Shown here piece after piece: positions 896 through 64,000 of a stretch of 64,000 nucleotides of DNA. The position numbers and the translations under genes are program-made. Below the pieces are notes generated by a model. It did no database searches and was not told the DNA's origin. It worked only from the letters and a program-made list of their open reading frames with translations. Numbering within the stretch: position 1 is the first letter of the stretch; every line of letters begins with the position of its first letter. Origin of the DNA: a virus; IMG/VR virus record IMGVR_UViG_3300033144_003384, positions 19,757 through 83,756 of that record. One strand, written 5' to 3'.

Positions 896-975
896 TGGTG
901 GAGCTGGCGGGAATCGAACCCGCTTCCAGACATTTGCACTTCGGCATTTCAGTCTGTCGAAACCATTACAGCCCC
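896..975 (-). ncRNA. ssrA: minimal tmRNA (tRNA-like domain only)
   Basis: GGGGCUG-UAAUGGUUUCGA-CAGAC...GUCUG-GAA-GCGGG-UUCGAUU-CCCGC-CAGCUCC-ACCA: G3.U70 Ala determinant, stemless D-loop, P2a helix, T-arm, encoded CCA; no room for a tag ORF. Confidence 0.9.
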
Positions 976-18339: not shown

Positions 18340-20225
18340 TGGGACATGATAGGCCATCTAAGCGGTACAACTATCAAGGCACATTCATCACTGGCGGAAC
18401 ACGGCGTTACAACTATGTGTGCTTCGACTGTCGCTACACGTCACGGGAAGGATCAAATTGCCCAACTTGCGGCAACAGACTTTGGTTTGCCAGAGACAGA
18501 TGGCGAGTACCGCCCAAAAAGGACAATAAGGCTTGGACCGAATACAAAAGACAAACCATCGCCATCAGAGACAACTGGAACGATAGGTACACACCGGAGG
18601 GGCACGCCCTGTGGCGAGGCCGTCGACTATTAGCGAAATGGAAACGGAAATGACTATTACGGAAGCACCAGTTACATGGAAAGAACTTGCTGCACTCGGA
18701 GGCGACTTCACCCAATTCGTCCAGTGGATAGTTCAAACCCACGGGCCGCTCCCTGACGGCAACATCCAGCAAGCCGACTACGAACGATACAAACAACTCT
18801 ACGAGGCAAAAACATGACTTGGCCATCAGAAAAATTTGTTGCCAACTTCGAAATTGGCGACCACGTTGGAGACCTTCCCACCATGAGAGCTGTCGTTGCC
18901 GCAATGGAATCTGCCGAAACTATGCAGAAAAACATGATGGAAGCTGCCGGAGACACTCACGCCGAAAATCTGTGGCTGGGAGCAATCCCCATCCTTTACG
19001 ACGTAGAGGTTATGGGGTACATTGTGTTTGAGGACTTCGGGTCCACGTATTATAAGGCCAAAGAGAAGGAGGGAAAATCGTGAACATAAAGGACACGACA
19101 TGGGGTGGCAACATCATTCAAGACAACTGGATACAAGGAGACCAAGTGGGACTTAACAACCTGTCATTTGCCGTAGGGACGGTCAAAAGGGTCGTCGTAG
19201 AGAACAAAGAGAAACACGCCGCCGAATTCCATGCCGCGTATGTGGGTTGGGTAGAGACGTGTAGACAATCAGCCACGACCATGATGGAACGTTTCGATGC
19301 TAGTGCTGAACCAGACGAGATGTTCCGTTTCCCTACCGCACCCGTTTCCCATGAAGACGACTACAGCCGCGTAGTCGACATGCTCGAATACACGACGGAC
19401 AGCACCGTAGCGTTGACAGAGTCCGAGTTCGAACAATACATGCGCGACCAATGGTCGTGGTCCGCAGGACATCAGGCTTCGTTCATGGCTTACACGCAGT
19501 AATGAAAGAGTTCAACTGGGTAGCAGCTTGCGGGTTTGCTTTCTGGACATTGCTGGTGTTTCTCCTGGGCTACATGGTTGGCATGTCGTGAGCCACAAGC
19601 ACCACTTCAAGTGGAGTGTTAATCTGGACGGCTGGCTTTGTCTGTGCGGCAGTTTGTATCAGCGGAGCGAGCGGTTCAGTGGCGTGTGGATCGAGACGAT
19701 GCAGTTCGACGAGAACTTTGTTGGGTCAGACGATGAGTAGGACTCGACGCAGGAAAATGTGGTACAAGGGGCCGGGCTTTGAGTTTTGGTCCAGGCGTCC
19801 GTACTTCGGGGAAGGCAAAGAGGGGAAGCGGGGGACTCATCGTCAGGAGCGTCACGTTGAGGCAAAGAAGGAAATTAAGGATCAATTGAATGAGTGACTG
19901 CAACATGTTTCCGATACCGCCGCCGCCAACAGATTCGGGGAAATTCTGGTTGGTGATTGGGGTGTCTGTTACGTTGTTCATCATAAGCATATACGCCATT
20001 ATCTCATATTTCGGTGGCTCTACTTCGGTAGTCCTTGACTGCGTCATCGTTGATAGCATCCAATATTGCCGATGAACAACCGAGTATTCTGGCTCATCTG
20101 CTTCGCCGTTGTCTTGGGCCTTGTCCTTCTCTACTTCGTGCAAGTCTTATCACCCTACTGATTTGACACCGCCATCTTCTTGGCGTACACTCCCTACGTC
20201 GGCTAGCGCCACGAAAGGAGCGCCC

Positions 20226-60774: not shown

Positions 60775-60880
60775 AAGATTTCCAAAATAAGTGATTGTTC
60801 CGCTTGACTTTATGACCGTTCGTATAGTATACTACCATCTGGGTAGCTGGTCAACGATCAGTTCCTTACGAACATTATAC

Positions 60881-61259: not shown

Positions 61260-61298
61260 CTAGGTTGCCAATCGTGGGGAGTGTGCTACGCTATCCTC

Positions 61299-61838
61299 AT
61301 GGATGGTAACAAAGTTTGTACCCGATGCGATGAAGATAAACCGTTCAGCGCTTTTAACAAAAACAACAACCGTAAAGACGGTCGTCGTTCCGAGTGCAAA
61401 TCGTGTCGGAAGAGCAGGGAATCGTCTCCCTGCCCAACTTGCGGAACTTTGAAGGCTAGGCAAAGTTTGCTTTGCTTCGGCTGTTCGAGAGACGAGATGA
61501 AGCTTGATTCTCCTGAAACGCTAAAATATATGGACCCTTGTGACGTAGCGTGGCTTGCTGGAATCCTAGAAGGCGAGGGATCGTGGGTCAGAAAAGGCAA
61601 GGATCGAGTCTCGGTTCAGGTGGCGATGACGGATAGAGACATTGTCTACCGCTTAAGGAAGATAACTGGAGTTGGCAATATCTTCGGACCCTACAAGAGG
61701 GAAGCTCATCACAAAGAACTCTGGGTCTGGTCGGTTGGGGCCATTAACCATGCTAGGGATGTCACGGACAAGGTCCTTCCTTACCTTGGACAGCGAAGAA
61801 AGGCAAAGGCTGTCAAGCTTTTTGGAACGTGGGAATAG
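61299..61838 (+). CDS. Zn-finger + single-motif LAGLIDADG homing endonuclease
   Basis: four CxxC pairs, AWLAGILEGEG; leaderless after TGC-TACGCT. Confidence 0.85.
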   Translation: MDGNKVCTRCDEDKPFSAFNKNNNRKDGRRSECKSCRKSRESSPCPTCGTLKARQSLLCFGCSRDEMKLDSPETLKYMDPCDVAWLAGILEGEGSWVRKGKDRVSVQVAMTDRDIVYRLRKITGVGNIFGPYKREAHHKELWVWSVGAINHARDVTDKVLPYLGQRRKAKAVKLFGTWE

Positions 61839-62244: not shown

Positions 62245-62319
62245 TGACAGTGCGCTCCGGTCGGGCGAGCTTGCCTGATAAGCAAGCTGTGCAGAGTTCA
62301 ACCCTCTGACTGTCAACCA
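62245..62319 (+). tRNA. tRNA-Ile(GAT), atypical
   Basis: loop CTGATAA, encoded CCA; 5-bp D-stem. Confidence 0.75.
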
Positions 62320-62320
62320 A

Positions 62321-62392
62321 TCCAAGGTGGCCGACTGGCAAGGCGGCTGGCTGTTAACCAGTGCAATGTGGGTTCGAATCCCGCCCTTGGAG
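62321..62392 (+). tRNA. tRNA-Asn(GTT)
   Basis: cloverleaf, loop CTGTTAA. Confidence 0.9.
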
Positions 62393-62393
62393 C

Positions 62394-62460
62394 TGTGACG
62401 TAACTCAGGGAGTATTCTGCTCTGTGACAGCGGAAGAGGGGTTCGAGTCCCCGCGTCACC
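62394..62460 (+). tRNA. tRNA-His(GTG), atypical
   Basis: loop CTGTGAC; 3-nt D-loop, extended anticodon stem, 4-bp T-stem. Confidence 0.65.
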
Positions 62461-62462
62461 CC

Positions 62463-62536
62463 GGCGACTTAGACTAACCGGATAAGTTCCCTGCCTTTCA
62501 AGCAGGTTGATATGGGTTCGAGCCCCATAGTCGTCA
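62463..62536 (+). tRNA. tRNA-Glu(TTC)
   Basis: cloverleaf, loop CTTTCAA. Confidence 0.88.
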
Positions 62537-62640
62537 CAAACGGCCCGTTGGAAGTCGTGACCGTCAGCGTATCAGGGCGCATTGGCGAATAAGAAGAAGC
62601 GAAGATACTCTGATTGTCAGCTTCAACTTGATCCAACAAA

Positions 62641-62713
62641 CAGGATGTAGCTCAGATGGAAGAGCCCCCGCCTCCTAAGCGGAAACGCCCAGGTTCAAAT
62701 CCTGGCATCCTGG
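62641..62713 (+). tRNA. tRNA-Arg(CCT)
   Basis: cloverleaf, loop CTCCTAA. Confidence 0.88.
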
Positions 62714-62857
62714 CGAGAGCAAGGTCCCTACGAAACCACGCGACGCTTCGGCCTCTCCGTGCTGGCATACCTTGCTCCCAATCGAGAGATGTAAGACGGT
62801 TTCCACAGGGCAGCACATAACCGTGGCCACGGCCTGCCTGGAACGCATTCTCTTCAC

Positions 62858-62938
62858 GCCGATATGACGGAACGGTAGACGTAGGGAGCTTAAACCTCCT
62901 GGGCGAAAGCCATGCAGGTTCAACTCCTGTTATCGGCA
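62858..62938 (+). tRNA. tRNA-Leu(TAA)
   Basis: cloverleaf, loop CTTAAAC, long variable arm. Confidence 0.9.
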
Positions 62939-62939
62939 C

Positions 62940-63508
62940 GAGACTGATGGACAAGTTATCGCTCTACCCCGTAGCTTCGGCAGGCGGGATGAGAGGAACC
63001 TCAGGACATCTCTGCATAAGGAAGGAGACGAAAGTCGCTTTTACTTCCGAGGATGCGACCGCAAACAGACGTAGCAGGAGTGCAGTGCTTAGCGTCGGGT
63101 AGCGGGCCAATAGATAGATGATAACTATGCTATCATGTCTCCATGAACGAAGTTGACGCAGCATGGGTAGCAGGCTTACTGGAAGGCGAAGCGTGTTTCG
63201 ACACAAACGCCGGAGGTAAGCGAAATCGTGTTGGGGCAGCCTATCCGAGAATCCGGATTGAGATGAAGGACAGAGATGTTCTCGTCAAGTTGAAGGATAT
63301 CTTGGGTGGTGTTGGTGGAGAGGTAAGGGAAGTCATTAGACAAAACCCGAATCATTCCAACACTTATTGCTATCAAGTTGGGGCTAAGGGTGACGTAAAG
63401 GTCATCCTTGAAGCAACGCTTTCCCACTACGGAGAGCGTCGCAGAGAAGCCGTACTTGGTCTCATGGAGATTTGCTAGTTACAGGATTCTGGGTACAGAT
63501 TCAGTTTC
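62940..63508 (+). ncRNA. rnpB: compact RNase P RNA interrupted by a homing endonuclease ORF
   Basis: P1 62940-47/63501-08; P2 62954-60/63120-26; CR-I GAGGAA + P4 CC(U)CAGGA pairing UUCUGGG in CR-V ACAGGAUUCUGGGUAC; CR-IV UAGAUAGAU; GGU loop. Confidence 0.85.
63143..63478 (+). CDS. single-motif LAGLIDADG homing endonuclease inside the RNase P RNA gene
   Basis: AWVAGLLEGEA, IEMKDRDVL; TGC-TATCAT ends 6 nt upstream of the ATG. Confidence 0.85.
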   Translation: MNEVDAAWVAGLLEGEACFDTNAGGKRNRVGAAYPRIRIEMKDRDVLVKLKDILGGVGGEVREVIRQNPNHSNTYCYQVGAKGDVKVILEATLSHYGERRREAVLGLMEIC

Positions 63509-63623
63509 ACACGCGCAGGCCCACGGTAAAGGTGGGTGAGCTTGGGAACCGACCGTATAGTAGCGCTACAATACGCGGAAAGGCCTTTGTAACAAGGGGG
63601 TGAAGGCCCCTCCCTTCGCTTCC

Positions 63624-63694
63624 GATTCCCGAGCCAGACGGCCCGGCGGCGGATTGCAAACCCGCATAACTCGGTTCGACTCCGAGGGGAATCT
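63624..63694 (+). tRNA. tRNA-Cys(GCA)
   Basis: cloverleaf, loop TTGCAAA, U73. Confidence 0.85.
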
Positions 63695-63698
63695 CTAA

Positions 63699-63769
63699 GC
63701 ACCTGTAACTTAACGGAAAAGTAGTTGGCTCTTAACCAATTAATCGGGGTTCGATTCCCTGTAGGTGTA
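63699..63769 (+). tRNA. tRNA-Lys(CTT)
   Basis: cloverleaf, loop CTCTTAA. Confidence 0.88.
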
Positions 63770-63774
63770 CGAAT

Positions 63775-63848
63775 GGACCTTTAGCTCAATCAGGTAGAGC
63801 AGCGGACTTTTAATCCGAAGGTTCAGAGTTCGATTCTCTGAGGGTCCA
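63775..63848 (+). tRNA. tRNA-Lys(TTT)
   Basis: cloverleaf, loop CTTTTAA. Confidence 0.92.
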
Positions 63849-63889
63849 CGACAGCCGAAGGGTTGTAAACAGTCGAAAGGCTGTATTGA

Positions 63890-63964
63890 GCTTCCTTAAC
63901 TCAACAAGCAGAGTCCGGCCTTTTAAGCCACGAGACGAGGGTGCAAGTCCTTCAGGAAGTACCA
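63890..63964 (+). tRNA. second, degenerate tRNA-Lys(TTT)
   Basis: loop CTTTTAA, 3-bp anticodon stem, D-loop without GG, T-loop TGCAAGT, encoded CCA. Confidence 0.7.
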
Positions 63965-64000
63965 AATGCCTACGATATCAGGCCAATCAACTGATTCATC

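Follow-up and report, generated by a model that had tools for sequence, protein, structure and literature searches.

A probable, strongly reduced RNase P RNA gene of type A ancestry with an endonuclease insert in a phage tRNA array

Introduction

RNase P RNA counts as a ribozyme of cells and organelles, and the locus described here raises the question of whether a phage carries one of its own. The DNA concerned, hereafter the window, is a stretch of 64,000 nt (positions 19,757 to 83,756 of the IMG/VR virus record IMGVR_UViG_3300033144_003384), which forms the final 64 kb of a linear 83.7-kb record estimated to be 56% complete; the element under study lies at 62940-63508 of the window, inside an array of tRNA genes. 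The analysis presented below indicates that this element is likely a phage RNase P RNA gene, strongly reduced and of type A ancestry, which carries an endonuclease insert and works as proposed here. As for the parts of this reading, the sequence makes it highly probable that the RNA derives from RNase P and is under selection, and rather probable that the insert-bearing copy is an active tRNA 5' maturase.

The identification as RNase P relies on four lines of evidence: the match of a homolog, L147, to the Rfam model of type A RNase P RNA (RF00010); the homology between the window RNA, L147 and a further homolog, L163; the type A order of the helices, inclusive of the P6 pseudoknot; and the covariation of these helices.

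Anatomy of the RNA

The elements of the RNA are listed in window coordinates, and their pairings were verified by a script that reads them.

62940-63508 (+): RNase P-like RNA gene, from the P1 5' strand to the P1 3' strand; 569 nt with the insert, 215 nt without it
62940-62947 (+): P1 5' strand; 8 bp with 63501-63508, present also in the minimum free energy (MFE) fold of the whole element
62954-62960 (+): P2 5' strand; 7 bp with 63120-63126
62962-62993 (+): P3 hairpin; CUC/GAG base (62962-64/62991-93), U.U and A.A mismatches, CCC/GGG and a UUCG-capped tip
62994-63006 (+): J3/4 (AGGA) and P4 5' strand; catalytic-core element equivalent to conserved region I (CR-I)
63007-63055 (+): P5 (63007-10/63052-55), P6 5' strand (63012-16) and stub (63017-51)
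63059-63105 (+): P15-P17 arm; P15 63059-62/63102-05, P16 63068-71/63093-96, P17 63074-76/63086-88
63081-63085 (+): P6 3' strand, in loop L17
63098-63100 (+): GGU of loop L15
63106-63119 (+): A-rich joiner from P15 to P2, containing AGAUAGAU; equivalent to J18/2 (CR-IV)
63120-63126 (+): P2 3' strand, pairing with 62954-62960
63481-63508 (+): 3' block; ACAGGA 63481-86 (equivalent to CR-V), P4 3' strand 63487-94, UAC 63494-96, a 4-nt linker and P1 3' strand 63501-08

The catalytic domain is kept: P1 to P5, with P4 as a pseudoknot that has a bulged U, P15-P17 with GGU, the P6 pseudoknot, and the J18/2-like and ACAG joiners are all in place, and they are the ones that form the active site and grip the acceptor end of the tRNA. 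A preliminary description of the locus, made from the sequence alone, had placed P1, P2, P3, P4 with the bulged U, the GGU loop, the A-rich joiner and ACAGGA...UAC in the right order, and the coordinates bear this out; its estimate of about 215 nt for the insert-free RNA is likewise the length obtained without 63127-63480.

P4 is formed by 62998-63000 and 63002-06 paired with 63487-94, for a total of 8 bp, one of which is G.U, with U63001 bulged. That this helix departs from the usual one on both strands and yet pairs had also been noted, and it holds for all three members of the sub-family (window, L147 and L163): the two pairs beside the bulged U are C-G and C-G, versus A-U and G-C in the RF00010 consensus (...GAGGAAAGUCC... 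/ ...CCGGCUUA, as printed in the L147 alignment), and the inner pairs covary. The consensus core has GAGGAAAGUCC as its 5' part and ACAGAA...GGCUUA as its 3' part; of this, the RNA retains ACAG, UA(C), AGGAA and the bulged U, AG before the bulge has become CC with a compensating GG opposite, and the window has ACAGGA.

Regarding the specificity domain, its place is taken by the 35-nt stub (63017-51), a single hairpin with a GAAA loop; 41 nt separate the P5 strands, versus 93 in L147 and 85 in L163, a reduction that justifies the term "minimal" used in the preliminary description. The P6 pseudoknot (63012-16/63081-85) crosses P15, connecting the segment that follows P5 with the P17 loop. In P3, the U.U and A.A mismatches (62965-66, 62989-90) are flanked by an invariant CUC/GAG in the window, L147 and L163, and they may be a conserved non-canonical motif, e.g., a protein or tertiary contact. 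Finally, P1 and P2 both form when all 571 nt are folded at MFE, and the insert makes up a separate closed domain.

Homologs and family-model searches

Three relatives were recovered with motifs or by sequence similarity. The closest, X1, is a 336-nt contig from a sediment DNA run that covers 62858-63123 at 94% identity. A motif made from the blocks unchanged in X1 led to L147, a 2-kb metagenomic tRNA array in which the RNA stands between tRNA-Thr and tRNA-Ser, right after a tRNA and insert-free; a motif common to the window and L147 then led to L163, a 207-kb low-GC phage contig with an insert-free RNA about 200 nt from a tRNA.

L147:714-1002 aligns with positions 1-367 of RF00010 (22.9 bits, E 2.2e-5), with P1, P2, P3, GAGGAA, P5, P15/GGU, the joiner, P2', ACAGAA, P4' and P1' in register and most of the specificity domain skipped. 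As for the relation between the three RNAs, a model built from window 62954-63126 (R1) finds L163 with 58.5 bits (E 8e-14) and L147 with 43.2 bits (E 2e-9), and nothing else in 1.45 Mb; since R1 finds both, the window RNA, L147 and L163 are clearly homologous. The model of type T RNase P RNA, RF02357, matched neither the window (a phage record) nor L147 and L163 in Rfam scans at E ≤ 10.

Other searches were less productive. Blastn of 62800-63700 against 50,697 phage records gave no match. Scans with exact motifs from blocks of the window returned 59 loci in viral contigs, all of them chance matches as judged by blastn, none in further viral scans and none in the first metagenome scan; the second metagenome scan returned 19 loci, namely the homolog L147, L145 (the same contig as L163) and 17 chance matches. 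The viral scan with the shared motif gave 13 loci, one of which, L163, is real, and in later viral scans L163 alone was real (one of 12 loci).

Some candidates were discarded. The only locus of the genome scan, L174, from an Aquificota metagenome-assembled genome, is a chance match. Five near-identical viral contigs (L175, L177, L178, L181 and L185) contain the motif from the start of P3 and the GAGAGGAAC motif, correctly spaced, and are without the downstream core; R1 has no match in L175 and L177, the two of the five that were searched, and the motif stretch is probably coding sequence.

Covariation

All helices pair in the window, L147 and L163, and the bulged nucleotide is U in all three. 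The sequences of P1, P2, P5, P16 and P17 differ among the three members with pairing retained: P1 has 7 bp in L147 and 8 bp in L163, P2 has changes on both sides in five of its seven pairs, and P5 is CAUC/GAUG in the window, CAGC/GCUG in L147 and CAUA/UAUG in L163. The inner part of P4 reads CAGGA/UUCUG, CGGGA/UCCCG and CUAGA/UCUAG in the three sequences; in P6 all five pairs differ and are still paired, and in P15 L163 lacks one C together with its opposing G.

In the alignment of the three sequences (A4), 95.6% of the cells are paired and both sides have changed in 18 of the 43 pairs; slid alignments gave 1-3 such double changes, and none of 500 shuffles reached 18. Two MAFFT alignments (A1 and A2), in which the variable middle is misaligned, were excluded from these counts. 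RNAalifold recovers P2, P3, P15, P16 and P17 unaided. As for P6, out of 5000 shuffled sequences 182 matched as well as or better than the window, 50 did so in the case of L163, and 1482 in that of L147.

The most telling control is X1, because it is so close to the window. It has 13 changes within the RNA, and six of them make up three double compensations (63012/63085, 63016/63081 and 63076/63086), two in P6 and one in P17; five more fall in the strands of P2 and P4, whose partners are beyond the aligned part, and one is in a loop. Among them, 62954-56 are all changed, and the alignment ends exactly before their partners, 63124-26. Together with L147 and L163, the double compensations of X1 overturn one pairing of the preliminary description, in which UCUGC and GCAGG (63074-78) had been joined as P5/P7: P5 is instead 63007-10/63052-55, P6 is 63012-16/63081-85, and 63074-76 is the 5' strand of P17.

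The insert and its homing endonuclease

The insert and its open reading frame (ORF) are the following.

63127-63480 (+): insert, 354 nt, at the J2/4 (P19) position
63143-63478 (+): ORF of 111 aa, single-motif LAGLIDADG homing endonuclease

The insert is closed by an interrupted stem of 16 bp (63129-46/63462-79) that holds both the AUG and the UAG of the ORF, and the fold of 63120-63500 has a z of -5.7. Regarding the protein, it scores 24.3 bits with Pfam PF00961 (cut-off 23.1, E 6e-5) and E 6e-16 with phrog_5046; the profile of its family matches the structures of I-HjeMI (E 9e-10) and I-AniI (E 6e-9), and 6 endonuclease relatives share the motif region W..AG(L/I)LEGE without change. The ORF takes up 336 of the 354 nt and only 18 nt lie outside it, which leaves no room for an intron core; the insert is a free-standing LAGLIDADG homing-endonuclease gene without an intron, lodged between P2 and the ACAG joiner. 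At the same position, the insert-free L147 and L163, both of them distant homologs, have just 5 nt.

As for the relatives of the endonuclease, five proteins were found first, and then the best 80 of 143 viral loci were taken. None of these 80 places its endonuclease in an RNase P-like RNA, as judged by R1 and by a crude motif test (GAGGAA upstream, ACAGRA downstream); the single locus picked by the crude test, L261, is coding sequence and has no tRNA. R1 likewise found nothing in 50 whole records of endonuclease relatives, although G000 and G101, used as the positive control, were recovered.

Fuller RNase P RNAs in other phages

When RF00010 was run on whole records of endonuclease relatives, 2 of 51 gave a match above the gathering score. 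L268 has an RNA of 341 nt (259 bits) in a dense tRNA array on a 102-kb fragment; L269 has one of 332 nt (139 bits) directly behind a tRNA, and its genome (record G056) is complete, measures 181 kb and has terminal repeats. In a further set, the same model found one RNA in 49 records: L272, 354 nt with 56.9 bits, which abuts a tRNA in a complete 170-kb genome. All three RNAs have a canonical P4, are unannotated and, as far as found, are undescribed; R1 finds neither L268 nor L269.

L269 is the most instructive for the window RNA. Its specificity domain is partly deleted, with large parts of P12-P14 gone, and at the P19 position, where P2' gives way to ACAGAA, it forms a perfect hairpin of some 45 nt (within L269:1757-1815); the site of the insert thus tolerates a helix. 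Taken together, the phage RNase P RNAs form a series from full size to the minimal form of the window.

Two further observations concern these records. In L268 (record G098), a fragment related to the window endonuclease (residues 1-63, 46% identity) lies at L268:2121-2294 on the - strand, about 280 nt downstream of the RNase P RNA (L268:1501-1841, + strand), on the opposite strand and just before tRNA-Asp. Another 400-nt match to RF00010, with 251.8 bits, is found in Microcystis phage MaAM05 (L271, MW495066.1:115284-115683), where no feature is annotated; the 274-kb record was published as that of a "jumbo phage" but includes many housekeeping genes of bacterial type, and its paper has no mention of RNase P.

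The tRNA array

The features that bear on the expression of the RNA are two.

60804-60833 (+): promoter-like site, TTGACT-18-TATACT, 10/12, 48 nt upstream of the array's first tRNA
62858-62939 (+): tRNA-Leu(UAA), directly upstream of the RNA, without an encoded CCA; 50.8 bits

From 60881 to the end of the window, the + strand holds 14 tRNAs called by ARAGORN and one additional tRNA called by Rfam; several are spaced by 0-4 nt, and the encoded CCA is absent from most. Among them is a cluster of tRNA-Ile, tRNA-Asn, tRNA-His and tRNA-Glu at 62245-62537. The 3' end of tRNA-Leu(UAA) falls at 62938 according to Rfam and at 62939 according to ARAGORN, and the RNA begins 1-2 nt later, inside the array, as the preliminary description had it.

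The promoter-like site is a possible start of a single transcript spanning the tRNAs and the RNase P-like RNA; it is a consensus match only, and four such sites were found versus 2.8 ± 1.5 in shuffled sequences. No terminator-like site occurs on the + strand between it and 63508. No RNA run is listed that holds the stretch; one DNA run, that of the sediment contig X1, covers part of it.

Around the RNA, the array has other features. The 190 nt that separate it from tRNA-Lys (63509-63698, + strand) begin with a region rich in hairpins and without a family match (63509-63617), followed at 63618-63693 by an acceptor stem, a good T-arm and an anticodon loop with ..UGCA.., a segment similar to the tRNA-Cys of L147 (28 nt at 82%); ARAGORN reports this segment, with an 8-nt loop, only when its thresholds are lowered to 70%, and the Rfam tRNA model has no match. 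The segment may be a degenerate or unusual tRNA-Cys. Upstream, 61261-61828 (+ strand) is a 568-nt gap in the array, from tRNA-Leu(gag) to tRNA-Gly. At the other end of the window, 896-975 (- strand) matches the transfer-messenger RNA (tmRNA) model of Rfam (RF00023) with 71.9 bits; the match has 80 aligned nt yet spans model positions 1-374, and ARAGORN is silent there. It may be the tRNA-like domain alone, or a much-reduced or permuted tmRNA.

Proposed mechanism

The sequences establish the anatomy of the RNA, its homology to RNase P RNA, its conservation through compensatory changes and the nature of the insert; transcription, protein partner, catalysis and homing are inferred. The RNA would be transcribed together with the tRNA array; such co-transcription is probable because a promoter-like site precedes the first tRNA and no terminator-like site follows it. 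Release would come through trimming of the flanking tRNAs, and 3' trimming of tRNA-Leu(UAA) would generate the 5' end of the RNA. Since the record has no RNase P protein gene, the RNA would probably be bound by the RNase P protein of the host, and it would then remove the 5' leaders from the tRNA precursors of the phage itself, which are tightly packed and for the most part lack CCA. The insert is looped out as a long closed hairpin with the core pairings left intact, and the endonuclease would presumably spread by cutting insert-free alleles.

That so small an RNA could work has support from known enzymes. The catalytic domain alone cleaves pre-tRNA, at lower efficiency, according to one study (PMC5839562). 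Another describes natural RNase P RNAs without a specificity domain in Thermoproteaceae (PMC3579882), and these type T RNAs indicate that a catalytic-domain-only form can suffice in nature.

A broader scenario can be put forward tentatively, as a speculation that is more doubtful than the function itself. Phage RNase P ribozymes may have been shortened stepwise, from 341 nt and 259 bits to 215 nt and no Rfam score, ending in a catalytic-domain-only enzyme for packed CCA-less pre-tRNAs, and the maturation of phage tRNAs would thereby become partly independent of the RNase P RNA of the host. The transcript of the window would then be both ribozyme and messenger, with the endonuclease gene sheltered in the dispensable P19 hairpin and its first and last codons fixed within the stem that closes it. 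If so, a double-strand RNase may cut the long stem, leaving a two-piece ribozyme joined by P1 and P4, plus a free mRNA.

Weight of the evidence and alternative explanations

Several points weigh against an active RNase P RNA in the window. Regarding the models, the window has no RNase P hit in Rfam, either at the gathering threshold or at E ≤ 10 on 62600-64000 and on 62936-63130 (the E ≤ 10 scans took in all 4227 Rfam families), and RF00010 has no match in the whole 84-kb record; with a 354-nt insert and a missing specificity domain this outcome counts against the reading and is yet expected. The preliminary description had proposed to try RNase P models on the insert-free sequence, and its natural insert-free homologs gave a divided answer: L147 matched, whereas L163 has no RNase P hit in Rfam at E ≤ 10. 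The L147 match, the sole one of the sub-family, has 22.9 bits versus a gathering score of 100 bits, with a bias term of 17.3; Rfam thus detects one member out of three and places none above the gathering score.

As for the structure, almost nothing is left of the specificity domain, the part that reads the tRNA elbow, P18 is absent with the joiner going directly from P15 to P2, and P4 is altered, though on both strands, in the two pairs adjoining its bulged U, which hardly vary in RNase P. The window has ACAGGA versus ACAGAA in L147, L163, L268, L269, L272 and the RF00010 consensus, and the 354-nt insert may impair folding. The covariation comes from three sequences and one partial contig, in an alignment fitted to the model; the remaining change of X1, 63061 G>A, breaks a P15 pair, and the P6 match of L147, being no better than that of 1482 of 5000 shuffles, is by itself no evidence for P6. 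No RNase P protein gene (PF00825) is present in the 84-kb record, which is 56% complete.

Finally, phages with a related major capsid protein (80 loci, with whole-record searches for 50 of the 80) show no blastn similarity, and R1 finds the RNA in none of the 80 loci and none of the 50 records; tRNAs are within reach in 7 of the 80 loci. RF00010 has no real match in the 50 records, giving only two 70-nt matches of 10 and 7 bits. The RNA is sporadic, because none of the 50 records carries it.

Two alternatives accept the RNase P origin, and each is unlikely. According to the first, the family is a genuine phage RNase P RNA while the copy in the window is a relic, inactivated by the endonuclease insertion and by ACAGGA, and the phage uses the RNase P of its host. 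The insert adjoins the joiner with the strongest conservation, only the window has a G as the fifth base of ACAGAA, and its specificity stub is the smallest of the three members (41 nt versus 93 and 85); none of the 80 viral relatives of the endonuclease lies in an RNase P-like RNA by the tests applied, which gives no sign that the arrangement persists in the lineage of this enzyme. A relic, however, fits poorly with helices and remaining conserved single-stranded blocks that are all intact, and with an insert neatly closed by a 16-bp stem where the RNase P RNA of L269 has a natural hairpin; moreover, the differences from the 94%-identical X1 are mostly compensatory, which implies recent selection on the structure in this lineage.

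The second, no more probable than the first, has an RNase P-derived RNA with another job, such as soaking up the RNase P protein of the host or acting on another substrate (e.g., tmRNA-like or tRNA-like elements of the phage), in place of general 5' maturation of tRNAs. Such a change of function would agree with the loss of the specificity domain and P18 and with the rewritten pairs of P4; in addition, host RNase P processes the tRNA precursors of phage T4, as stated in a review (PMC11143913), and a second enzyme is not obviously needed. Against this, the elements kept are those of catalysis and of contact with the tRNA 3' end, namely the bulged U of P4, the ACAG joiner, the A-rich joiner and the GGU of L15, and the genes lie within tRNA arrays in 5 of the 6 phage examples, with L163 about 200 nt from a tRNA.

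A last possibility, that the element is an intron of group I or II, or self-splicing in some other way, with a homing endonuclease and that its likeness to RNase P is superficial, is very improbable: the ends of the element do pair and LAGLIDADG genes usually reside in group I introns, but no intron family, group I (RF00028) included, has a match at E ≤ 10, the ORF leaves no space for a core in the insert, L147 and L163 carry the same RNA without any ORF, the flanks hold no interrupted host gene and the upstream tRNA-Leu is complete, and L147 aligns to RF00010 end to end.

Significance and comparison with known systems

An RNase P RNA encoded by a virus would represent a viral auxiliary gene of a new class. 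As an experiment made by nature, it would further show how far the bacterial-type enzyme can be cut down, here with no specificity domain, no P18 and the pairs of P4 rewritten. The protein gene within a ribozyme helix, without an intron, is unusual, and it offers a direct test of the tolerance of P19.

In the literature, no description was found of an RNase P RNA encoded by a phage or virus, or of an endonuclease gene inside one; lists in the supplements of large surveys of RNA motifs or of huge phages may bear on this novelty. Phage tRNA precursors are textbook substrates of host RNase P, and a 2024 review treats them only as such (PMC11143913); a study that ran all Rfam models on megaphage genomes reports only tRNAs and a tmRNA (PMC8172020). 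Standard annotation misses the sub-family because its members fall below the Rfam thresholds.

Among known RNAs, the closest is type A RNase P RNA (RF00010; rnpB/M1 RNA): the window RNA has the same order of helices, the P4 pseudoknot with the bulged U, P15-P17 with the P6 pseudoknot, GGU in L15, an A-rich joiner before P2' and the ACAG joiner before P4'. The P15-P16-P17 arm with GGU and the P6 pseudoknot are the hallmark of type A versus type B. Unlike type A RNAs, the window RNA has 215 nt versus about 350-400, P7-P14 reduced to a single hairpin and no P18; it is phage-encoded in a tRNA array, carries a protein-coding insert and falls far below the gathering score.

In size, the window RNA recalls type T (Pyrobaculum; RF02357), which, according to its description (PMC3579882), has about 200 nt, keeps the catalytic domain and has nearly lost the specificity domain; the two RNAs probably work in the same way. 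Type T is instead archaeal, chromosomal and associated with archaeal proteins, and the two reductions are independent.

The RNAs of L268, L269 and L272 resemble that of the window in being phage-borne, placed in or abutting tRNA arrays and of type A architecture; they differ from it by the canonical P4, by keeping most or part of the specificity domain, by P18 and by scores of 57-259 bits with RF00010.

As for the insert, SegB of phage T4 is a free-standing homing endonuclease of the GIY-YIG family, encoded in a phage tRNA cluster. The endonuclease gene of the window is similar to it in being intron-less, in lying among phage tRNA-type genes and in presumably spreading by cutting endonuclease-free alleles; unlike the gene of SegB, it is inside a structured RNA gene, where it extends a helix, and its product is of the LAGLIDADG type, not GIY-YIG.

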